A stretch of DNA of 64,000 nt from Promethearchaeota archaeon (GTDB taxonomy: Archaea; Asgardarchaeota; Lokiarchaeia; Sigyniarchaeales; SOKP01), in assembly GCA_019058445.1 (NCBI GenBank), contig JAHPZA010000009.1, positions 288,001 through 352,000 of the forward strand. Direction: 5' to 3'. The notes under the pieces were generated by a model. It was not told the DNA's origin. It ran no database searches and saw only the letters and a list, made by a program, of their open reading frames with translations. The position numbers and the translations under genes were made by a program. Shown here piece after piece: positions 11,848 to 63,254 of this stretch; the stretch's first letter is position 1; each line of letters opens with the position of its first letter.

Positions 11848-13335
11848 ATGAATTATCATTTCCTACACGACTTTTTATATCCAAATAGCATTGCGTTCTA
11901 TGGTGCAAATAATAAAGGAACCGGAATTGCTTCGTTTCAGGTAATAAATTTAATATTATCCAAATACAGGGGTAAGGTCTTTCCAATTCATTTAAATTTA
12001 GATTCTGTTATGGGCTATAAAGCTTATAGATCTATATCTGAGCTTCCAGAAGTCCCAGACTTAGTCATAATATATTTACCTCCAAAAATCGTGCCAGAAA
12101 TTTTTCGAGAATGTGGAGAAAAAGGAGTTAAAAGAATTATCATAGTTTCCGGAGGATTTAGAGAGATGATTGGAGATCGAAAGAATATATATACAGAGCA
12201 AATAAGTCAAATTGCTGAAAAATATGGTATACGCTTTATTGGGCCAAATTGTTTAGGTTTTTACAATAATTGGATTTATCCTGAGGATGATACAGTTGCC
12301 TTAAATACATCAATTTGGGAAAAATTAAAACGAGGCAAGTTTTCAATAGCATCTCAAAGTGGCACTCTTTCAAGTCATATCTGGTTCGACCCTGAATACA
12401 TCGATATGGGCTTAAGCAGATCACTTTCAATTGGAAATGAAGCGAATATTGATATTGTAGATTGCTTAGAATATTTAAAAGAAGATGATAAGACAGAAGT
12501 TATAGGCTTGTACATAGAAGAAATTAAGCGTGGAAAAAGATTTTTTGAATTGGCGACAGAGATTAGTCCTAATAAGCCAATAATCGCAATTTATCTTGGT
12601 GGCACAGAAGCAGCAGAAAGGGCTGTGAGAAGCCATACAGGTTCAATTGCGGGGAATTCTAAAATTTACAGCGCTGTTTTTAAAAAGGCAGGAATAATTA
12701 AGACCGAATTGGTTGAGGAATTTTTAGATATCGCTATGGTGTTATCTAAAGGAGTCTTGCCAAAAGGTAGGCGAGTTGGAGTTATAACTAATTCGGGAGG
12801 GCCAGGCGCAATGATAGCTAATCACGCAGAAAAGGTTGGTTTAAAAATTCCAGAGTTTAGTGAATCATTGCAGGTAAAATTAAAATCTATGACTTCACAC
12901 ACCGCAAGTACTCGTAACCCTTTAGACAGTACATTTGATATGAATCTGATCAATTACTACATAAATTTACCCAAAGCAGTAATGAAATCTGGAGAAGTCG
13001 ACCTTATTTTCATGTATGGGGTATTTGGGTATCATGATGTTTTAGGTAAATATCTAAATAATGAAAGGATTGCACACTCAATTGACATGACGCAGGAATT
13101 TTTAAAAATTAAAGGCAATCTAGAGGATATATTGATTAGACCTACCTTAAAATTATCAAAAAGATTATCAATTCCAATTATTTACATAAATCCCGAAAAC
13201 TATTCTAGCCCCTGGTCAATTAGTATTAAAGAATGTGGGGGTACGTTATTTCAATTTTGGGATCGCCCCGTAAGAGTCATGGCCAAAATATGTGAGTATG
13301 CAGCGTATAAGCAGAAAAATTCTATAGGAAACTAA
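11848..13335 (+). CDS. ADP-forming acyl-CoA synthetase (ACD), alpha subunit
   Basis: CoA-binding domain, GPNCLG, SQSG, SHTGSIAG (phospho-His), TNSGGPG. Confidence 0.9.
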   Translation: MNYHFLHDFLYPNSIAFYGANNKGTGIASFQVINLILSKYRGKVFPIHLNLDSVMGYKAYRSISELPEVPDLVIIYLPPKIVPEIFRECGEKGVKRIIIVSGGFREMIGDRKNIYTEQISQIAEKYGIRFIGPNCLGFYNNWIYPEDDTVALNTSIWEKLKRGKFSIASQSGTLSSHIWFDPEYIDMGLSRSLSIGNEANIDIVDCLEYLKEDDKTEVIGLYIEEIKRGKRFFELATEISPNKPIIAIYLGGTEAAERAVRSHTGSIAGNSKIYSAVFKKAGIIKTELVEEFLDIAMVLSKGVLPKGRRVGVITNSGGPGAMIANHAEKVGLKIPEFSESLQVKLKSMTSHTASTRNPLDSTFDMNLINYYINLPKAVMKSGEVDLIFMYGVFGYHDVLGKYLNNERIAHSIDMTQEFLKIKGNLEDILIRPTLKLSKRLSIPIIYINPENYSSPWSISIKECGGTLFQFWDRPVRVMAKICEYAAYKQKNSIGN

Positions 13336-13339
13336 TTAT

Positions 13340-14275
13340 TTAAGGTAATTTATTTAATTTACTCATAAAAATTGACGCATCTTTAAGAGTTAATGCTAAT
13401 CCTTGCATTAAATTAACATATTTTTTAGCAAAATAAATTTTCCCCTCGAATTTAGGATTATTCTTAATTTCATCAAGGTTAAGAATAACAGATTTCGAAA
13501 CACTAATGCCTAAAGAGTCAATATAGACCGTATCACCATCCTGAAATGAGGAAATATAGTTCACCTTAGAGTGGATCCAATAATCGCTTAATGGTTGTTC
13601 TATTTTTATATCTTTTTTAACTAATTTTTCTTTAGGTCTTTCCAATTTATTAATTTTTTCAATTAAATTTTCTAAATAACTATTAGCTTCATTTAAATTA
13701 ACCTTAGAAGACAATAGTAAAATAAGATTTAAGGATATCTCTTTAAGTTGAAAAACCCTTGAAATTACTTTTTGTTCATTTTCCAATAAAAATATTGTTA
13801 GTTTTACGTTAATTTTTTGGTTTTTCTCCTGATTTTCCATATGATTTGCCATAACTAGAAAGATATCATCCGGCAAAGAAGAATACATAACTTTTCCTTC
13901 TAAATTAAATATTGCTCCTCCTAAAATCTCTTTATCTATGAGTGATTCTCTTAAAATTTCTACAATATTTTTTATTAATTGGGATAAAGTATATGTTATT
14001 ATACCTTCCTTATCCTTAGCTTCACTTTCATAGAATTCTATTTTGGTAATTTCGAAATCGGCATTTTGGTATGCTCTTACGTTGAAATCTTTATCGATAA
14101 ATGCTTGAAAGCTGTGTTTGCATACAAATTCAGAAGGAATTGAAATGGTTGTTAGATGTTCACTTCGTTTAGTCAATTCCATAGGAATTTTTAAGAATTT
14201 CTCTTTTCCGCATCTCGGACATACTAATCTGATTTTTACGTAATTTTCTCTGAAAATCTCATCCTCGGATAGCAT
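13340..14275 (-). CDS. Zn-ribbon plus roadblock/longin-like domain protein
   Basis: CPRC...CKH..F..FID; central ILGGAIFNLEGKVMYSSLP resembles roadblock/LC7 folds. Confidence 0.6.
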   Translation of the reverse strand: MLSEDEIFRENYVKIRLVCPRCGKEKFLKIPMELTKRSEHLTTISIPSEFVCKHSFQAFIDKDFNVRAYQNADFEITKIEFYESEAKDKEGIITYTLSQLIKNIVEILRESLIDKEILGGAIFNLEGKVMYSSLPDDIFLVMANHMENQEKNQKINVKLTIFLLENEQKVISRVFQLKEISLNLILLLSSKVNLNEANSYLENLIEKINKLERPKEKLVKKDIKIEQPLSDYWIHSKVNYISSFQDGDTVYIDSLGISVSKSVILNLDEIKNNPKFEGKIYFAKKYVNLMQGLALTLKDASIFMSKLNKLP

Positions 14276-23956: not shown

Positions 23957-24496
23957 TTAAATTAAACCCTGCTTCTTAGCGAGCTTATACTTACATTTTT
24001 CACCACATCCTACTTCATCATTAGGGTCGTGATCTTCCGAATCGAAATCAATTGGCAAAATAAGATCTTTAGCAATTTCGGTAACAACCTCCATAGAAGC
24101 CATACTCACGTCTGAATTATTCCGAAAATGATAATTCACAACTGTATCTAATTTTTCTAATTTACTGCTTGCCAAGAGAATACATATATTATGTGCTCCG
24201 CTTAACCGAAAGGCATTAAGCATGAATGGGCAACATTTTGCCATATCCATGATCTCCTCTGGATTCTTCGAATTAACTTCCACGGTAGCTAAGAAAAGCT
24301 CAACCTTTTTAAAATTGATTCCTGGCTGAAATTGTAATATTCCAGACTTTTCCAGTTTTTTAATTCGCATCCCTACAGTAGGCTGACTTCTATCGATTTT
24401 TTCAGCAATTTCAGTATGCGTAAGATTTGGGTCTTCTTGGACTAATGAAATTATTTTTCTATCCACATCATCCAGCTTTAGCTTTTCACTTATCAT
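23957..24496 (-). CDS. Lrp/AsnC-family regulator
   Basis: THTEIAEKIDRSQPTVGMRI, CCPF..AFRLSG, tail CGEKC. Confidence 0.9.
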   Translation of the reverse strand: MISEKLKLDDVDRKIISLVQEDPNLTHTEIAEKIDRSQPTVGMRIKKLEKSGILQFQPGINFKKVELFLATVEVNSKNPEEIMDMAKCCPFMLNAFRLSGAHNICILLASSKLEKLDTVVNYHFRNNSDVSMASMEVVTEIAKDLILPIDFDSEDHDPNDEVGCGEKCKYKLAKKQGLI

Positions 24497-24791: not shown

Positions 24792-25010
24792 TTAATCTTT
24801 CCAGCAATGATGATCCAATTTACATTCACATCTACTAAAATTAAAATCAAATGGTATAACAAAATCGGTCATAATGTCCGTTATTAGATCTATTGTAACT
24901 TTCAGTACATCAGGATTGCTTCTTAAATGAATATTGACAATCTTATCAATATCTTCGACATTAAATCCTGCCATCATAATACTCATATCGGTATTTCCGC
25001 TCAATCTAAA
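24792..25010 (-). pseudogene. Orphan 3' half of an lrp gene (displaced original end of 31637..32143)
   Basis: FRLSG...CECKLDHHCWKD nearly identical to the C-terminal half of the 31637 gene; HTH absent. Confidence 0.9.
24796..25010. repeat. 215-bp direct repeat, left copy (att-like)
   Basis: Ungapped manual alignment to 31644..31858, about 29 mismatches, mostly at third codon positions. Confidence 0.92.
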
Positions 25011-25263
25011 TGCTACTATCGGATTAAATACCAAAATATTTTTGAAATTCCTAAATTTATCAAATCGTTGAAAGTAAAAAAAATGGAATAAATTTGTAAT
25101 GAGACTTATAGATTTCTAATACTTATTTTAGAGGAATTAGCACATTTTTGAATAATTTGGAATATTAATATTAAGTGAATAACTCGTTCACTAAGAAAGA
25201 AATCCCTAAGAAATCAAAGTAAAAATTAAATTAAAAAAAAAGAAGTTAAAATAGAAGTAGGGC

Positions 25264-25421
25264 TTAAATGTAGCCATTCTTTCGAAGGATATTCACCCAT
25301 CCGCACGTACAGGCTTCACAGTCGGGTTCCCATTCCTATAACAGTTCGAGCAGGTTATGACGGAATCAAAACTCGCTTGCTCTAACAAATTCATCAATAG
25401 TTCCTCCTTCTCTTCACTCAT
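25264..25421 (-). pseudogene. Small zinc-finger protein, frameshifted
   Basis: MSEEKEELL...VITCSNCYRN / frameshift / EPDCEACTCGWVNILRKNGYI*. Confidence 0.65.
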
Positions 25422-25424
25422 AGT

Positions 25425-25709
25425 TTAGTGCTCACCTGTAGATCTGTTTTTGAGAATAATATAGAATTGCATGAGCTCGTTAAATGTGAGACATTTGATA
25501 TTACAGCCTGTCTTACATAGCTCGTACACATAGTTCGCTTCTAAGAAGTTAATTACATAGGTGTACCATTGTTCTAAGGGGATGTGTTCTGGAAGTGCTT
25601 TCCTTACGAGTGGCAAAAAGGCGTTCATAGTGAGGTTTTTGCTATATAATTGTTCAAATTCTTTTCGGTGGTATTTCATTTCGGGGGGCGGGGTGTGTAG
25701 CGAATACAT
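25425..25709 (-). CDS. Hypothetical mobile-element protein
   Basis: 94-aa ORF tightly packed with its neighbours (TAA-ATG junction at 25712-25707). Confidence 0.6.
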   Translation of the reverse strand: MYSLHTPPPEMKYHRKEFEQLYSKNLTMNAFLPLVRKALPEHIPLEQWYTYVINFLEANYVYELCKTGCNIKCLTFNELMQFYIILKNRSTGEH

Positions 25710-25860
25710 TTAGCGAAATCGCTCTCCGTATCGGTCATTAAACTTTTCAAAATCCATATCATCTTCTAACATATCTTTTAAGATGTCATAGGCATCCAGA
25801 ATCGGGGAATTAGGAGAAATAAATTCAAAATCCTTGTAGATAAATTCTAATTTTTTTCAT
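25710..25860 (-). pseudogene. Small acidic protein frameshifted in an A7 run after the ATG
   Basis: Removing one A gives MKKLEFIYKDFEFISPNSPILDAYDILKDMLEDDMDFEKFNDRYGERFR*. Confidence 0.55.
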
Positions 25861-25972
25861 CCTAATGTAAAAGTGGCAGGATCGAATTCTTCAGAAAAGA
25901 ACTCCTGGATGAAAAATATAATGTTCATAGTGCTACTATATATTTTACGCACGGAACGGAATAATTCATTAA

Positions 25973-26433
25973 TGGAAATTCATTACTGAAGGTATTATCA
26001 CCGCCCACAATATTTTAAGTTCTACCGAAGAAATTGAAATTAATGGCGGATATAACAAATTTACAGGAATAGTGAATGAAGGAATTGCCTCTGAAATCAT
26101 AAAAGTGACTCCCCGGGAGGGAGTATACTATGATAACACGTTAGGGTTCCAACCTGAGACGATTGATGGTTCTTATTACTATATGGACGGTGATTTTGAC
26201 GGGAAGATGGAAACAATATTGGTAGCAGATGTGGAAGGCAACATAATCGCTGTCGGGTTTGATTACGATTATAATTCATATTTCGTACCCCATAAACGAG
26301 ATCTAGTTCACATTCACGTGCGTGAATCACAATTTTCTGAAGATGAGGGATACTTTAACTCAAGCATAAATTACTGGACTGTTATGACGAGGACGATGAT
26401 TATATCTCTCTTGAAAAGACATTCTCGGACAGC
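25973..26433 (+). pseudogene. Frameshifted upstream part of the giant protein gene, lacking a native start
   Basis: Frame opens after TAA at 25970; contains DGDFDG and DYDYNS Ca-binding-like motifs; the frame of the 26434 ORF is already open from ~26359. Confidence 0.7.
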
Positions 26434-29400
26434 TTGTTTGACTTATGGAAAATTCAATTCTCTGGGGGTTCGAGTGTACTATTAGATGAAGTATCCCAGC
26501 TTACTTTTGATAAATTTGCGGAATCTCTCACTCCAGAAAAAGTACGAGCAGATTTTGCGTGGCAATTAATTTCCACGGGTGTTGCGCTTGGCGTAGGAGC
26601 ATTAGCGGGGAAGTTAGGATTTGCGCTGACGTATGCGGGTATGAATATTTGGAAAGGGGTAGTAGACCAAATGGAGCAGGACAATCTGATCGCTTCGAAG
26701 ACATATCACGACGAGAATTACCGCGGTAAGAAATCATTATCGGAGACGCCTTGGTATGATGATTTCTTTGGAGATTCCATTACCACCGCGTTTATTGGTA
26801 ATCCATTCGGCGTATATGCGCCCGTAGTATTTGAGACCGAGAAGTATAAATATGAGGGTCAAGTGGTATTAGCACCTATGGGCGGGTCTAAGACAAAAAG
26901 TATTGAGGAGTCATTTTTATCCAGCGGACTTCAGGCAAAATACGTATACACTCCATTAGATTTTTCCCTTCAAACCCGGAATTATCTAGGATATTCTGAT
27001 CTTACTGATGTACGATGTCAAGGATTAATTGATGATGATTTAATGGTTGATTATTGGGTTGAATCTGCGCTAAGCATAGACTTCGGCATGTCAGGCAGCC
27101 CATATGAAATAGCCTACGAGGGGCTTACCCATTACCAAGAAAATCTGGACGTATTCTCCCGCCTCTGGAACGCCCCGCATTCCATTACATACCTTGAAAA
27201 TAACGCTGCCCTATCTACCAAGCAAAACCAAGATGATGATCTGAATAAAATTATCCCCTATATGGATGATTACTATCCAACCCTTTTATTAAGTGATGTG
27301 AACAACATTAAAACTCTTCCCGAATTCTACGAGGATTATCCTATCATTGTCTCAGAAGAGGTCTATGACGATATTTGCGATGAGTTGTTTGATAGGGAGT
27401 TAGATAGCTTCTATAAAGTATGGGAAAAAGGAGAAGGTCAAGATCTACGCATCATCCCCGGAGGTTCCACGCATACATTAAAAGCCGATATTGATCACAT
27501 TAACGTATATGTCTGTACTTACAAAACAGGGGGCGATAAAGCGAGCTTTGGTTACGATAAATTTGACACCTTGGAAAGCGATGATTATGCATTTGATGAG
27601 AATTCAGGGCAGATTATCTTTGATTCATCTATCATAGAGAAGTTTAAAGGTAAAATTGACGAGAAAGAAGATGTCAATTCAAACTATCAATATTGTATTG
27701 TTTTAGAGATTTTTGTAGAAAAGTTCCGCTCTATCAATGACACCAAAGACCTTACTACTGAGGAGATGAAACAGATTGCGTCCATGCAAGCCATTCAGGT
27801 AGCAGTATTGGAGTATTATTATCAATTCCAATTAGCTGTACAAAGCCAATCCAAGATCAATGAGATCGCCTATACTGTTGCTCTCACAGCAGCCACTACC
27901 GCGATTTTATGCCCCCAACAGATTCTATCTGAGACGTTAGAAGAATTATTCTTAGACCCGCTTATTGAAGCCTCTGTATCTGGTATTACCAGAGAGATTG
28001 GTAAAGCTATGGGTATAGAGGATACCACATACGCCGAAATCGTGTTTTCCACCATGGCAGAAACCGGGCGTGAAACTGCTATGGGGTTAGGGACCACGTT
28101 TAATGAGCAATCCCAATGGCGCCAAAACCGATACATTCACAAAATATTTAAAAAGATCACTGCCTACCAGCAGCAACAGGCAGCTGCCCATCAAAATAAT
28201 ATTATAGAGGAAGTGAAACAATCATCCGAACAAGATACTTCTGATACAGCGCAGACGTCTTTAATTATATTTGGCAGAGCAATCCAACAAGCTGCCATCT
28301 ATGCCAAGCTAAGGAATATGGATGTGAAACAGCGCAAACAGATTGCAAAACTTCCCGCAAAACAGATTCTCGCCATTTTAACTGGAAAAGAAGCGGTAGA
28401 TTTCGATTTAGATTCTAAGCTACCTGCTCCCAATCCGTTCTATATGGGTGACGATGATGATGAGGGAACAATCGTGTATAATGAAAGGCTAAATGCGCTT
28501 ATTCGACTCAATATGTTGAGCGGTAATCGGTTAAATTCTATCTCCGATGAGAAAAAGCAGAGACAATTGCCAAAAGGATTATGGGAAAAAACTGTTAGAA
28601 TGGTTCAAGCACAAAGTCTTAATATTCTTCAAGATAGTAAGGGTATTTGGACTTTGGATCCATATATGATTGCCAGAGATATCCTACAAGAGCAAGGATA
28701 TGATATAAGTAATACTCTTTTTGCTGGAAATATGGCACCAAGATTTATCGCTTCAGCAGATTCTATTGAGAAATATATAACATTAATTAGTTTATACATT
28801 AATGACTTCCAACATTGTTTAAGAAGTAACAATTTGATTGAAGCTCTTGACATATTAGATGTAAAATCAGACGTCTCAAGAAAGATTATTCAAGATATTT
28901 TGGATAGTGGTAATAAAGTAAAAATTCAATTAGCTAAGCATATCCTTAACAAGATCTTAGACCTTAAAATTACAAAGAAGTTACCAGCTGATGCTATTAT
29001 AGGAAATACCGAATCATTAAAAATTTGGCAAAAAGGATTTTACAAAAAATTAAAATCAGGCAGTTTTCGAGGGGTTGTGTATAAAGTTTACTTCAACCTT
29101 CCAGGAACGGTTTATGATTATAAAAATAGCCATTATATTGGTAATCAATATATTGGTGCAACTGGTAGAATGAATCCTAAAATCCGTTTTTATGAAGAAA
29201 TTTGGCAAGCATTAGAAGCTACTCAAGATACAAGGCAAAAGAAAATTACTCAATGGTTATTGCATCCCACTCCACAAAATTTGCCGATTTTGACGACTAA
29301 AAATAAATATTTTAAAGCAATAATTTTTGCAATGCGTTTTTCAGGGATAACAGTCAAGGAAATCCTTGATTATAAGAAGCAGATAGATGCTCATCCATCA

Positions 29401-30492
29401 AAAAAGTGGGATATAGCAATGAAAATAGCTGATAGGTTAGAAACGAGTAATATTGTTAAGTTCACACCTATAGAAGTAACTGAGTCTCTCGACTATGCAT
29501 TTAAGAGAGAAAGACAATTAGTTTTAGCTTATCAGAAAAGAAAAGGATCAATAGATACTCTATTAAACTCAATAGTTCCTGCTGGCGTATTTGCAGCATC
29601 AATAGATCTTCCTTGGTTTGATATTGCAATAATGATTGCAATGGGGTACCCTATAAAACAAATAGCAGAACATTTATCAAACGAATATCCAGAATACCAT
29701 GGAATCCATAGGAATACTATTACCCGTGGAATAGAAGAATTATTTGGTGATTTTTATCAAGCTCAAGAGGAATTGTTGGGAGGGTCAATTGAATACCTTT
29801 TAGATTTTAGTGAAGAACTATTAGGGCGCGAATCTGGTGCTGTACGGCGCTATTTGCAGATACAACATGATATTAGAATCCATAGAACTGTGTATTATAA
29901 AGCTAAGAAAGACATAACTTGGTTTTATCAGTACTTGTGGGGTTCAGTAGGTCTGAAATTTGATCAAGACAAAGTAAAGTCTCTTATTGATCGTCTCCCT
30001 CCCGCTAAGATAGATCCTCATACTGTAAACAGAATTGTCAACGCATACTCCCTTAGATTATACGGTCAACCAAGAATAACGTGGTATAAGTGGGCAATTG
30101 AAAATAAAGATGATGTTTCGATTGCTAATGAACTCAATATTAATAGAAAGACTGTTAGCAAGATATGGGACACTTTGTTAGAAGATATATTACAAGATAC
30201 ACAGATACCAAATTTGATTCTAGCCACGAATAGCAAAGAAGCAATAAAATCATACCTTAGATCTCAAATAGCGATCGCTTTATTACAAAGGGGCGTCTCA
30301 ATGGATTATATTTGGACTTATGTTTTTGGAGAATCTGTTACTCCCTATCAAGCTCAAAAAAGAGATGAATTTTTTCAAAAATTAGCGTTGGGGTCCTATT
30401 TACACTCTGAGGATGTTTTACTTGGATTTTATGATACATTCTGGCTTGAATTTCATGAGATTCTTTATAATGCCCCCTCAGGCATAATTTAA
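26434..30492 (+). CDS. C-terminal remnant of a giant polymorphic-toxin-like protein with a GIY-YIG nuclease and HTH domains
   Basis: Acidic N-part, Gly/Ala hydrophobic helices, Q-rich linker, GVVYKV...YIGATGR..PKIRF...RERQ...LLNS, two HTH-like segments. Confidence 0.7.
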   Translation: MFDLWKIQFSGGSSVLLDEVSQLTFDKFAESLTPEKVRADFAWQLISTGVALGVGALAGKLGFALTYAGMNIWKGVVDQMEQDNLIASKTYHDENYRGKKSLSETPWYDDFFGDSITTAFIGNPFGVYAPVVFETEKYKYEGQVVLAPMGGSKTKSIEESFLSSGLQAKYVYTPLDFSLQTRNYLGYSDLTDVRCQGLIDDDLMVDYWVESALSIDFGMSGSPYEIAYEGLTHYQENLDVFSRLWNAPHSITYLENNAALSTKQNQDDDLNKIIPYMDDYYPTLLLSDVNNIKTLPEFYEDYPIIVSEEVYDDICDELFDRELDSFYKVWEKGEGQDLRIIPGGSTHTLKADIDHINVYVCTYKTGGDKASFGYDKFDTLESDDYAFDENSGQIIFDSSIIEKFKGKIDEKEDVNSNYQYCIVLEIFVEKFRSINDTKDLTTEEMKQIASMQAIQVAVLEYYYQFQLAVQSQSKINEIAYTVALTAATTAILCPQQILSETLEELFLDPLIEASVSGITREIGKAMGIEDTTYAEIVFSTMAETGRETAMGLGTTFNEQSQWRQNRYIHKIFKKITAYQQQQAAAHQNNIIEEVKQSSEQDTSDTAQTSLIIFGRAIQQAAIYAKLRNMDVKQRKQIAKLPAKQILAILTGKEAVDFDLDSKLPAPNPFYMGDDDDEGTIVYNERLNALIRLNMLSGNRLNSISDEKKQRQLPKGLWEKTVRMVQAQSLNILQDSKGIWTLDPYMIARDILQEQGYDISNTLFAGNMAPRFIASADSIEKYITLISLYINDFQHCLRSNNLIEALDILDVKSDVSRKIIQDILDSGNKVKIQLAKHILNKILDLKITKKLPADAIIGNTESLKIWQKGFYKKLKSGSFRGVVYKVYFNLPGTVYDYKNSHYIGNQYIGATGRMNPKIRFYEEIWQALEATQDTRQKKITQWLLHPTPQNLPILTTKNKYFKAIIFAMRFSGITVKEILDYKKQIDAHPSKKWDIAMKIADRLETSNIVKFTPIEVTESLDYAFKRERQLVLAYQKRKGSIDTLLNSIVPAGVFAASIDLPWFDIAIMIAMGYPIKQIAEHLSNEYPEYHGIHRNTITRGIEELFGDFYQAQEELLGGSIEYLLDFSEELLGRESGAVRRYLQIQHDIRIHRTVYYKAKKDITWFYQYLWGSVGLKFDQDKVKSLIDRLPPAKIDPHTVNRIVNAYSLRLYGQPRITWYKWAIENKDDVSIANELNINRKTVSKIWDTLLEDILQDTQIPNLILATNSKEAIKSYLRSQIAIALLQRGVSMDYIWTYVFGESVTPYQAQKRDEFFQKLALGSYLHSEDVLLGFYDTFWLEFHEILYNAPSGII

Positions 30493-30562
30493 AAAGTATA
30501 GTTTTTTATTAAAATATAGGAAAAGGATTTTGTTTTCTTGTAAAACAAAAAAGTCTTGTTAC

Positions 30563-31504
30563 ATGATAATGAAAAAAAGAACATGGTTTTTCACCACAAG
30601 AAGTCTAGAAGACGAGGGAGAGGGAAAATTTGAAGAAATTTTTGTCAATATATGTGGTCTCGATTTTTGGAAATATCGACAAGAACCTAGTCTGCTTTCG
30701 AAATTCATATTAGAAAGCCACTTAGATGAAATAATCAATTATATTGAGTATCATAAACACCAACAATTAAAAAGATACCAAACCTCTAACGATAAGTTAA
30801 AAATTAGGGAAGGAATAGATTTATTATATGCTCTTGCGTACCAAATTCTTGCAATATTAATTCTTGAGACTGGCTCCATTTTACCTGATAAGGTAAAAAA
30901 CGAGGTTTTAAGAGCAACAATATGGGATTTTGATAAACGATGGGGCTTCTCTTCAGCGTATATAGAACCGAGAAAAAATTATCTAAAATATCTGCGGAAT
31001 GCTATATTAAACTACAATTCTGGTAAGAAGGTTTTATTTGTGGATAGTCCTGAGTTGAAAATTCTTAATAAAGGTAAAGAAGCTACGATAATTGAAGGTT
31101 TAGAAGGATTGTTTGATAACATAGTAAGAGCGCAAGAAGTCACCCGGCTCGATTTAAGCAATTGCAATTTGAAATCTATCCCTGAAGAAGTATTCTTTTT
31201 TACTAATCTTAGAGAATTATATTTAAGTGGAAATAAATTAAGGGAGATTCCTAGTGATATTAAGGTCTTGCAAAATCTTGAAGTTTTAGATTTGTCTCAT
31301 AACGATTTTGAATCCTTCCCAGAGGTAGTTGTGGAGCTATCGTCTCTTGAAGTATTAGATTTAATTAAGAATAGAATTAGTGAAATACCAGAATCTATTT
31401 TATGCCTCGATAATTTATATTATTTACACTTAGGAGGCAATCCAGTTGATTTTGTTAAGTTACATTCGCTACTTCCGGATATCTATATTGGCTATCCATA
31501 TTAG
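30563..31504 (+). CDS. Helical N-terminal domain plus LRR; candidate immunity protein
   Basis: LxxLxLxxNxLxxIP repeats in the C-terminal third; directly downstream of the nuclease-tipped gene. Confidence 0.8.
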   Translation: MIMKKRTWFFTTRSLEDEGEGKFEEIFVNICGLDFWKYRQEPSLLSKFILESHLDEIINYIEYHKHQQLKRYQTSNDKLKIREGIDLLYALAYQILAILILETGSILPDKVKNEVLRATIWDFDKRWGFSSAYIEPRKNYLKYLRNAILNYNSGKKVLFVDSPELKILNKGKEATIIEGLEGLFDNIVRAQEVTRLDLSNCNLKSIPEEVFFFTNLRELYLSGNKLREIPSDIKVLQNLEVLDLSHNDFESFPEVVVELSSLEVLDLIKNRISEIPESILCLDNLYYLHLGGNPVDFVKLHSLLPDIYIGYPY

Positions 31505-31636: not shown

Positions 31637-32143
31637 CTACTCTTCTTTCCAGCAATGTTTATCTAATTTGCATTCGCATTTACTAAAATTAAAGTCAAAT
31701 GGTATAACAAAATCGGTCATAATATCTGTAATTAGATTTATCGTAACTTTAAGTACATCAGGATCGCTTCTTAAGTGAATATTGACAATCCTTTCGATGT
31801 CTTCAATCGTAAAACCTGCCATCATAATACTCATATTTATATTACCGCTCAGTCTAAAACAATTCAAGAGAAATGGACATTTTTTAACAATGTCATATAT
31901 ATTATCAGGGTTGTTTGTCTGGAGATCAACTCTTGCAAAATACATATCGGCTGCTTTCAGATTTATTCCTGCTTGAAACTGTAGGACGCCTTGCTCTTCA
32001 AGTCTTCGAATTCTCATTCCTACAGTAGGTTGGCTCCTATTAACTTTTTCGGCGATTTGGGTATGTGTTAGATTAGGTTGATCTTGGACTAAAGCAATAA
32101 TTTTTTTATCAATTTCATCCATTTTTAATACTTCACTCATCAT
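31637..32143 (-). CDS. Lrp/AsnC-family regulator (integration target, intact)
   Basis: THTQIAEKVNRSQPTVGMRI, CPF..CFRLSG, tail CECKLDKHC. Confidence 0.9.
   Translation of the reverse strand: MMSEVLKMDEIDKKIIALVQDQPNLTHTQIAEKVNRSQPTVGMRIRRLEEQGVLQFQAGINLKAADMYFARVDLQTNNPDNIYDIVKKCPFLLNCFRLSGNINMSIMMAGFTIEDIERIVNIHLRSDPDVLKVTINLITDIMTDFVIPFDFNFSKCECKLDKHCWKEE
31644..31858. repeat. 215-bp direct repeat, right copy (att-like)
   Basis: Exact blocks shared with the left copy: CCTGCCATCATAATACTCATAT (31815-31836 = 24967-24988) and a 29-bp block (31695-31723 = 24847-24875). Confidence 0.92.
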
Positions 32144-32346: not shown

Positions 32347-32682
32347 ATGAGTGAGTTAACAGAAAAGATTGCAGACTTTCTAAAAATACTTTCAGACCAA
32401 ACGCGACTTGAGATCTTGGAACTATTAAGAAATGGTGAAAAAACCTCAAAAGAAATACAAGAGCGATTAGGTAAAAGCCAATCAACAATATCTCAGCATC
32501 TGAAAAGATTGAACGATGAGGATCTCATCATCAATGAAGAAAAGGACAATATAAACTACTATCGGATTAAGTATCAATATATTTTTAAAATCCTTAAATT
32601 TATCCAATCATTCGTAATAACCCTCCAAAAAGAGAAAATTAGAAAGCTAAGTGAATTAAATATTGAAGATACTCTATCATAA
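32347..32682 (+). CDS. ArsR/SmtB-family regulator
   Basis: LSDQTRLEILELL...SQSTISQHLKRL. Confidence 0.9.
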   Translation: MSELTEKIADFLKILSDQTRLEILELLRNGEKTSKEIQERLGKSQSTISQHLKRLNDEDLIINEEKDNINYYRIKYQYIFKILKFIQSFVITLQKEKIRKLSELNIEDTLS

Positions 32683-62237: not shown

Positions 62238-63254
62238 ATTGGTGAAAATAAAATATCAAAAAGAAAATCAGAAATAAATTCTTTTAATTTTAAAATTATT
62301 TGCCTATTGATTTGTATTGTGAGTCTTATTATTAGTTTTATAAGTTTATATATAATTCAGGGCTTACTAGGAATAATTTTGTTTTGTATATTTTTTAACA
62401 TGTTATTAATTTTTATATATATCAATTCACGTATCATATTCCAATTTAACACCAGTTTAATAGGTGTATCATTATTTTTGATTGGACTTGCCTTTGCAAT
62501 ATCAACATTAGTTTTTAATCCATTTAACATCTTAGGAACATTATTGTTTGCTATTATTTATATGGTAATGATCGTAGTTGGAATATTATTTATTAAAGAT
62601 GGAATAAAATTCAAACAAAAAGATAAAAAATGTAATCAACTAGTTATAGAAAAAATAATTCACAAAAATAAGATGGATAAAGAAGAAGTTCAGGTTTTAG
62701 AAAATTTAGAAAGAATTCTTGGAAGGAAAATTGCGCGATTAAATAACATTAATTATGATACAATTGGAGTTCAAATTGTTGAAAATAAAATCGTAGGATT
62801 GGCCTTGTATAAATGCGAGCTAAATTATTTACCAGATTACATAGGTGAACTTAAATCACTCCAAGTATTAGGTTTGAGTTCTAATCAATTAAAAGAACTC
62901 CCTGAATCTATAGGCAGATTAAACTCTCTGAAAATATTAGATTTAGATAATAATCAGTTAAAAAAACTCCCTGAATCCATTGGTCAATTATCATCTCTAG
63001 AGGGATTATTAAGTCTAAGAAATAATCAATTAACTAAACTTCCAGAGTCCATTGGAAAATTAAAATCTCTTAAAGAATTTAATTTAAGTAAAAATAAATT
63101 AACAACTTTACCTGATGCTTTTAAAGCACTTGAATCACTTGAAATTTTAGATATACGATTTAATCCGTTATCTAAGTCAAAAAATCAAGATGATAGGACC
63201 AAAATAATATTAAAATATTTGAAAAAGCATGGTGTTAAAATTTATAAATCTTAG
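62238..63254 (+). CDS. Membrane protein (about 4 TM) with C-terminal LRRs; start uncertain (ATT 62238 or TTG 62307)
   Basis: Hydrophobic N-terminus; LPESIGxLxSLxxLxLxxNQL repeats. Confidence 0.88.
   Translation: MGENKISKRKSEINSFNFKIICLLICIVSLIISFISLYIIQGLLGIILFCIFFNMLLIFIYINSRIIFQFNTSLIGVSLFLIGLAFAISTLVFNPFNILGTLLFAIIYMVMIVVGILFIKDGIKFKQKDKKCNQLVIEKIIHKNKMDKEEVQVLENLERILGRKIARLNNINYDTIGVQIVENKIVGLALYKCELNYLPDYIGELKSLQVLGLSSNQLKELPESIGRLNSLKILDLDNNQLKKLPESIGQLSSLEGLLSLRNNQLTKLPESIGKLKSLKEFNLSKNKLTTLPDAFKALESLEILDIRFNPLSKSKNQDDRTKIILKYLKKHGVKIYKS

Follow-up and report, generated by a model that had tools for sequence, protein, structure and literature searches.

What is a long reading frame without a start codon, broken by a frameshift and followed directly by a leucine-rich repeat (LRR) gene, in the genome of an Asgard archaeon? 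The question is raised by a locus on contig JAHPZA010000009.1 of the Promethearchaeota archaeon assembly GCA_019058445.1, of which we analysed positions 288,001 to 352,000 of the forward strand (64,000 nucleotides (nt), hereafter the window, whose own numbering is used below). A sequence-only reading of this locus had taken the frame for the remnant of a giant protein ending in a GIY-YIG/helix-turn-helix (HTH) tip, and had proposed an archaeal antagonism system with the LRR protein as immunity protein or partner. By sequence comparison, the frame is the C-terminal module of a giant-protein family of Promethearchaeota, in which a conserved core is followed by tips that are exchanged between close paralogs. 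The window copy itself looks like the 5'-truncated, frameshifted tail end of such a giant protein, that is an orphan or decaying cassette.

Giant proteins with exchangeable C-termini

The label of a giant-protein remnant proved correct, as in relatives this module closes open reading frames (ORFs) of 9,130 and 14,552 amino acids (aa), where the core occupies residues 7952-8578 and 13248-13932, respectively, and is followed by ~550-620 further residues. The shortest open frames with the core measure about 1,100 aa and the longest 14,552 aa, weaker matches occur in frames of up to 20,619 aa, and remote giants of 12,000-20,000 aa also finish in a core-like module plus 700-1,900 residues. The closest relative of the window frame shares 48% identity with it, and residues 1 to ~770 of the window protein match six proteins of 1,045-1,822 aa with differing C-termini. 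The named relatives are Promethearchaeota metagenome-assembled genomes; among 400 genomes from the phylum, the core profile has matches in 55, and the window's own family, with 134 genomes, supplies 50 of them. The giants begin with 4-7 N-terminal hydrophobic (transmembrane) helices, followed by an acidic, Ser/Thr/Asn/Tyr-rich body of thousands of residues that is probably extracellular. No Pfam family was recognized at E ≤ 0.001 over the full length of the 9,130-aa giant, nor in the window protein (P0001). Separately, a weak core-like match (G206:C13:141759-142481) lies inside a 20,619-codon open frame, which is among the largest archaeal ORFs met in this analysis.

Conservation extends ~430 residues upstream of the core and so gives a module of ~1,070 aa; the short forms P0005 and P0007 start exactly at that boundary. 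In the predicted structure of the core (predicted template modelling score 0.71), very long helices are bundled around a beta-rich domain and the hydrophobic segments lie inside the bundle. Structure searches gave no convincing counterpart: the best VIA-wide matches were helical bundles only (Z up to 5.6) and shape comparison with the ESM Atlas reached template modelling scores of at most 0.22. ESM Atlas feature searches with the core and with the helical domain of the downstream protein returned nothing usable. The best Foldseek match of the core, portal chains of phicrAss001 (E ~0.01), was rejected with a template modelling score of 0.07 and a root-mean-square deviation (rmsd) of 38 Å. An Asp-Pro pair (27955-27960) within the motif E..E..F.DP..E, just after the second hydrophobic helix, is kept in 25 of 25 members of alignment A3 and is a possible site of self-cleavage or metal binding.

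Beyond the core, the proteins part company. In 26 members the post-core tips measure 455-749 aa and are mostly unrelated or mosaic, with few pairs sharing parts. Paralogs within one genome are 85-100% identical through the pre-core region and the core, and identity then falls abruptly to about 15-30% at a point 30-70 residues past the third hydrophobic segment. The three copies of genome G168 (L051, L052 and L054) drop from 93-100% to about 20% past this break, the two of G190 (L056 and L057) from 85-95% to about 20%, and the two of G227 (L065 and L066) from 100% to about 20%. Three genomes thus hold what characterizes polymorphic toxin systems, a conserved carrier whose C-termini are swapped between close paralogs. 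Many further copies end at contig edges just upstream of the core, as is expected because near-identical repeats collapse. The sequence-only reading had suggested a search of Asgard proteomes for homologs with different C-termini and different downstream genes, and both were found among the Promethearchaeota relatives.

Stand-alone 3' cassettes, another mark of such systems, are also present: the window copy lacks the 5' part and the start, and a short form with an LRR gene lies downstream of a giant in G265:C185. At the latter locus (L096, G265:C185:32000-51000), the stop codon of the giant is followed by a co-oriented array of small genes, including two paralogs of 156 and 165 aa, then by the short form of 1283 aa and by a 304-aa LRR gene that overlaps the short form's stop. 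This layout of a main gene plus an orphan cassette resembles a poly-immunity plus orphan arrangement.

A nuclease tip and the genes behind it

According to alignment and structure model, the window tip is a predicted I-TevI-like GIY-YIG nuclease followed by at least two HTH domains, the layout of a homing endonuclease. The GIY-YIG hallmarks noticed in the letters alone hold up at the positions given for them, since the catalytic set Y883, Y906-I-G908, R918, E1026 and N1045 is kept in alignment A2. With the tip modelled by AlphaFold (predicted local distance difference test score 75.7), an exhaustive VIA-align comparison with 48,161 PDB chains placed the I-TevI catalytic domain first (1ln0_A, Z 7.6, rmsd 2.7 Å, 89 of 92 residues), followed at lower rank by T4 EndoII (Z 5.7) and a GIY-YIG restriction enzyme. 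The Z-score of the I-TevI match is middling when taken alone; the match spans the whole domain and fits the sequence evidence. Both HTH-like segments were likewise modelled as HTH folds. Foldseek of the whole 498-residue tip model against the PDB gave nothing below E 0.06, and a PDB sequence search with the tip found no match.

The GIY-YIG Pfam family (PF01541) was not found in P0001 itself at E ≤ 1, the gathering threshold not being reached. A HMMER search with residues 700-1352 against 1.84 billion representative proteins retrieved 22 remote relatives, mostly free-standing proteins of 350-500 aa. The Pfam cut-off of 22.6 bits is passed by relatives P0016 (24.6), P0021 (31.9) and P0022 (27.7), and also by the tip of the own-genome paralog P0011 (23.3 bits). 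The genes around one free-standing relative, P0014, are unlike the gene behind the window tip.

Six tips belong to the GIY-YIG/HTH family or carry a Pfam GIY-YIG domain, and one tip cluster is LAGLIDADG_3-like, with P0010 scoring 27.9 bits against a cut-off of 22.6. In 17 of the 26 tips no endonuclease domain was found by Pfam or the tip hidden Markov model (HMM). Pfam on 20 further tips detected only a weak, sub-threshold HTH in L012 and a ubiquitin-like domain with GIY-YIG in L059. The latter tip (L059:6637-8385 (-), G225:C71) joins a ubiquitin-family domain (29.3 bits) directly to GIY-YIG (22.7 bits).

The gene directly downstream of the window frame does join a helical domain to LRRs, five in number, and its LRR_8 match (PF13855) scores 67.7 bits against a 27-bit cut-off. 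Such a partner is a recurrent feature: 26 loci have a defined tip, and in 22 of these a same-strand ORF of 130-511 aa follows, mostly within about 150 nt of the stop codon. The partners fall into LRR proteins, proteins with an 'ITLKL...IYIKG' domain fused to LRR or WD40, proteins with the window-type helical domain, and several small families; they consist of scaffold repeats (LRR, WD40) and have no signal peptides. A gene behind a 9,447-aa giant consists of the window-type helical domain by itself (36% identity, E 9e-23), and the gene behind the 9,130-aa giant combines this domain with LRRs. An LRR partner follows 6 of 9 nuclease-type tips and 1 of 17 other tips (Fisher estimate about 0.002, for loci that are not independent). 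In the genome of the window (G000), LRR genes number only about 20 over 4.6 Mb, yet one follows each of its two family copies. LRR genes stand next to family members far more often than such a number would predict. The clearest cassette-like pair is L009/L054, whose tips are up to 65% alike, compared with ~40% for the cores, and whose downstream genes are related at 38%. Complex prediction with tip residues 855-1352 (A2) and the window partner (A4) returned a score of 0.00, which counts neither for nor against binding.

Two observations concern the partner-type genes as such. The 'ITLKL..TNIYIKG' domain comprises ~150 residues followed by a helical part, has no Pfam match, occurs fused to WD40 or LRR or alone, and lies next to giant-family genes in several genomes (Table 1). 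Another LRR gene of the window (62307-63254 (+), 315 aa) is distant from any giant-family gene.

The window copy and its island

The start-less, frameshifted frame of ~1500 codons described from the letters was borne out as two overlapping pieces. In the first (25973-26485 (+), 170 codons), ATG, GTG and TTG are all absent up to 26072, and upstream of this piece stops close every frame; the second (26359-30492 (+)) comprises 1377 codons. Both align in order to the own-genome paralog P0011 (1450 aa, G000:C6) and, being collinear with it, are therefore parts of one gene split by a real frameshift. DNA comparison with P0011 locates the shift near 26365-26380, where about 10 nt (3n+1) are deleted. 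Programmed frameshifting was ruled out, since homology puts the shift at the deletion and a slippery heptamer is lacking. The other features named by the sequence-only reading, an acidic DxDxDG-type motif, two Gly/Ala-rich hydrophobic regions and a Gln/Ala linker (28162-28194), are likewise in place (Table 1).

Table 1. Features of the window locus and, in the last row, family-associated genes at other loci
Feature	Position	Strand	Remark
Left direct repeat, displaced 3' end of Lrp/AsnC gene	24796-25010	-	87% identical to 31644-31858
Piece (57 nt) from inside ArsR gene, abutting the Lrp fragment	25013-25069	+	86% to 32556-32612
One frame (~188 codons) broken by exactly two in-frame stops	25293-25856	-	No relative in 134 family genomes
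Segment (129 nt) at 5' truncation point of giant-family gene	25851-25979	+	94% identical to 3' end and downstream of P0036
Start-less first gene piece, pre-core region with DGDFDG at 26186	25973-26372	+	Homologous to P0011 residues ~55-190
Frameshift zone	26359-26385	+	3n+1 deletion relative to paralog; slippery sequence absent
Conserved core module (~660 aa)	26434-28413	+	Long helices with Gly/Ala-rich hydrophobic segments, beta-rich middle; known fold absent
Hydrophobic Gly/Ala-rich segments in core	26554-26652; 27865-27915	+	
Invariant core motifs	27940-27969 (E..E..DP..E); 28060-28074 (GRE)	+	
Hypervariable tip, 692 aa	28414-30489	+	
GIY-YIG nuclease domain with ~80-residue helical insertion (predicted)	29068-29577 (residues 879-1048)	+	Alignment and structure model
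First HTH domain (predicted), residues 1057-1105	29602-29748	+	Z 5-6.6 to HTH domains
Second HTH domain (predicted), LuxR/GerE-like, residues 1208-1277	30055-30264	+	Z 5-6
Partner gene: helical domain (~30665-31100) and five 23-residue LRRs (31139-31480)	30563-31504	+	
Right direct repeat, now 3' end of intact Lrp/AsnC gene 31637-32143	31644-31858	-	
'ITLKL' domain genes	L006:12497-13786 (-); L006:6925-8064 (-); L008:13310-14593; L063:4454-5686 (-); L062:5567-6436 (-)		

The pair sits, as judged by genome comparison, in a 6.6-kb strain-specific island inserted into the 3' end of an Lrp gene. The island is framed by a direct repeat of 215 nt that copies the 3' end of the Lrp/AsnC gene, and it is bracketed by two Lrp/AsnC paralogs (51% identical; 23957-24496 (-) and 31637-32143 (-)). 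In relative G170 these paralogs are 134 nt apart, they are contiguous with the ArsR and GTPase genes, and both repeat copies match one single place (G170:C259:6936-7152); the repeats thus enclose 6.6 kb that were inserted or are specific to the strain. The 12-kb neighbourhood of paralog P0011 is also missing from G170 and G174. P0036, the source of the match at the truncation point, lies 5 kb upstream of P0011. No integrase was found in the island; its sole other frame is 25293-25856 (-), which with its two in-frame stops is pseudogene-like by sequence, either an orphan pseudogene or a recoded gene. No tRNA gene was called in the window by ARAGORN. A sequence of ~105 nt (L006:16875-16980, G000:C6:874874-874979) is repeated at 85-90% identity elsewhere in G000 (C1, C4, C9) and in same-genus genomes, and may be an element resembling a miniature inverted-repeat transposable element or a small RNA.

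Alternatively, whatever the family does, the window copy may be a relic that has lost its function in a rearranged island, and the LRR gene may now act alone or not at all. A gene that has no start codon, is cut off at its 5' end where a 129-nt fragment copied from the paralog's neighbourhood lies, and carries a frameshifting deletion speaks for such a relic, as does the left part of the island, a mosaic of gene fragments with a frame interrupted by two stops. It is opposed by the state of the remaining sequence, because 1377 codons and the partner gene are both still fully open in DNA of ~37% G+C, whereas the flanking repeats have diverged by 6-13%. Open frames between diverged flanks suggest very recent damage, selection on a product started internally (TTG 26434) or use as a recombination reservoir. 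Taken together, a mere relic is quite plausible, falling just short of an even chance.

Antagonism, selfish spread or a receptor tail

For the family as a whole we favour, at about an even chance, a contact-dependent system of antagonism or recognition, of which the window would hold an orphan or decaying cassette. We do so because in its architecture the family answers to the structural definition of polymorphic effector systems, and bacterial polymorphic toxins are its closest known analogues. Full-length giants are ordered as 4-7 N-terminal transmembrane helices, an acidic body, the conserved ~1,070-residue module and a tip of 455-749 residues that is exchanged as a whole by recombination. 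In the proposed mechanism, the anchored giant would bring the conserved module up to a neighbouring cell, into whose membrane the module's hydrophobic helices would insert, and the tip would then enter the neighbour and damage its DNA, which in the window tip would be the task of an I-TevI-like GIY-YIG DNase with HTH domains. The co-oriented cytoplasmic partner, composed of the helical domain and LRRs, would protect the producer and its kin by neutralising the tip, so that the LRR gene may be the antidote of the GIY-YIG tip. The window copy would at most serve as a silent reservoir cassette or yield an internally initiated fragment.

The antagonism proposed by the sequence-only reading therefore stands in part: swapped tips, a nuclease fold and recurrent LRR partners agree with it, whereas tip-partner covariation is weak and no known export domain was found. 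Two of the three outcomes named there as refuting it, a C-terminus common to all homologs and a tip that fails to model as GIY-YIG, were checked and did not occur. Several points weigh against a weapon with its antidote. Pfam detected no recognisable export, trafficking, processing or pre-toxin domain (Sec, type V, VI or VII secretion systems, HINT, RHS) in the giant or in P0001, with only the N-terminal transmembrane helices in evidence, although an archaeal route of a kind not yet known is possible; the short forms P0005, P0007, P0010 and P0011 have no N-terminal signal or transmembrane segment. If the hydrophobic segments, three in number, were ordinary transmembrane helices, they would leave the tip in the cytoplasm of its producer. 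The tips are 3-5 times longer than typical bacterial toxin domains, and they are built like site-specific homing endonucleases, with GIY-YIG or LAGLIDADG joined to several HTH domains. The similarity of tips and that of downstream genes correlate weakly (r 0.27, permutation p 0.012, mostly from one pair), and the partner families (helical domain, 'ITLKL' domain, LRR) are reused behind unrelated tips. The LRRs of the window partner have a period of 23 residues (69 nt) and are not of the ribonuclease-inhibitor type, in which the period is 28-29 residues. The window copy, being truncated and frameshifted, weakens a simple toxin-immunity reading, and G000 (92.6% complete) holds no full-length giant with the window-type core as a recombination partner. 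Finally, the excerpted text of the 2012 survey of polymorphic toxins (PMC3482391) mentions neither LAGLIDADG nor homing endonucleases. We do not file the family as a member of the polymorphic toxins, because an export or processing module is absent, the tips are long and resemble homing endonucleases, the partners are not strictly tip-specific, and export, delivery, toxicity and immunity are what we infer.

The composition of the tips could alternatively mean that GIY-YIG+HTH and LAGLIDADG+HTH cassettes are selfish homing endonucleases that invaded the 3' end of giant genes and spread by cutting tip-less or otherwise-tipped alleles, followed by repair copying; in that case the identity break would mark where co-conversion ended, and the partner genes would be hitch-hikers or regulators. 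The I-TevI-like order, with a catalytic domain ahead of DNA-binding HTH modules, is what such elements would show, as is LAGLIDADG_3 in another tip cluster. Moreover, relatives of the window tip are mostly free-standing genes without an upstream core, and strain-specific islands hold both G000 copies. Known endonucleases of the free-standing, intron or intein kind are nevertheless a poor model for tips that are fused in frame to the C-terminus of a membrane module in 26 of 26 members and are of similar length. The majority of tips in which Pfam and the tip HMM recognize no endonuclease domain, the presence of several differently tipped paralogs in one genome and the nearly universal co-oriented partner gene also argue against selfish spread, which we consider unlikely.

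In another explanation the three hydrophobic helices are true transmembrane segments and the tip is the cytoplasmic, membrane-tethered DNA-binding tail of a giant surface receptor. On contact, sensed by the giant ectodomain, the HTH/nuclease tail would be released or activated, with the invariant Asp-Pro perhaps serving as cleavage site; the LRR, WD40 or helical partners would act as cytoplasmic adaptors or inhibitors. Between the body, probably extracellular, and the tip lies an odd number of hydrophobic segments, three in most members, which agrees with this topology; tips rich in HTH domains agree with DNA binding, and scaffold-repeat partners that lack signal peptides and accompany different tips agree with adaptors. 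Near-identical paralogs that differ in the entire tip, together with orphan-like short forms, are, however, signatures of conflict systems and not of signalling; the catalytic GIY-YIG residues are kept, and the model buries the Gly/Ala-rich hydrophobic segments in a helical bundle that looks soluble. We regard a receptor tail as improbable. The version in which the giants are contact receptors and not weapons, holding an exchangeable cytoplasmic nuclease tail by LRR/WD40/helical adaptors until the ectodomain engages another cell and the tail is released (e.g. at Asp-Pro), is a long shot, as is a related variant in which site-specific-type tips choose the integration sites of giant-gene islands.

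If the antagonism reading holds and the tips are delivered toxins, organisms of tight syntrophic consortia would possess a machine for contact-dependent antagonism, and a module for crossing membranes, that are both new; if they are not, the family would be an unusual surface-to-DNA device. In either case the locus and its relatives give Asgard giants a testable logic, consisting of a conserved pre-tip module, a C-terminal effector swapped by recombination and partners drawn from eukaryote-like LRR/WD40 scaffolds. With its small size, the tip/partner pair (nt 28414-31504) lends itself to direct expression tests.

Asgard giant genes have been reported as numerous but functionally blank (PMC8813620; bioRxiv 10.1101/2023.11.21.568195). 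In the literature searched we found neither the module nor its swappable tips described, the Asgard giants there being uncharacterised or parts of aloposons; new here are the layout of the family, the swapped tips, the partner genes and the island position of the window copy. The aloposons of Heimdallarchaeum carry tandem giant genes of 3,000-6,000 aa (Otus, Ephialtes) with tRNA integration and, upstream, a conserved set of four genes that includes a MinD/ParA ATPase (Wu et al. 2022, PMC8813620). Like the window island they are integrated, strain-specific elements with Asgard giant genes, and the aloposon integration site lies just downstream of the giants. The window island, set apart by description, differs in consisting of one truncated gene plus an LRR gene and in lying in a protein-coding Lrp gene, with no tRNA gene. 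The hypervariable gene module of Thermococcales, likewise compared by description only, involves different proteins with immunoglobulin domains, and the excerpted report (PMC8416519) gives no nuclease tip or LRR partner.

With I-TevI (PDB 1ln0) the window tip shares the GIY-YIG catalytic fold with its Y, YIG, R, E and N residues, the HTH modules that follow and the free-standing relatives. Unlike I-TevI, which represents free-standing, intron- or intein-encoded genes with a homing site, the window domain is fused in frame to a membrane-associated giant module, contains a helical insertion of ~80 residues and does not lie in an intron.

Polymorphic toxin systems of the classical kind are reported as rare in archaea, and those of bacteria include Tox-URI1 toxins with the GIY-YIG fold and Imm-LRR immunity proteins, according to the excerpted survey (PMC3482391). 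From the bacterial systems (CdiA-CT/CdiI, Rhs; Zhang et al. 2012, PMC3482391) the Promethearchaeota family departs in its archaeal host, in carriers of up to 14,552 aa without a Pfam domain or a known export or processing module, in a novel pre-tip module of ~1,070 aa with hydrophobic helices, in multi-HTH tips of 455-749 aa and LAGLIDADG-like tips, and in partners reused with unrelated tips. Common to both are a large conserved carrier with an abrupt switch to unrelated C-termini, tips with a nuclease of the GIY-YIG/URI fold, a variable gene (sometimes LRR) as the immediate downstream neighbour, and orphan cassettes without a 5' part.

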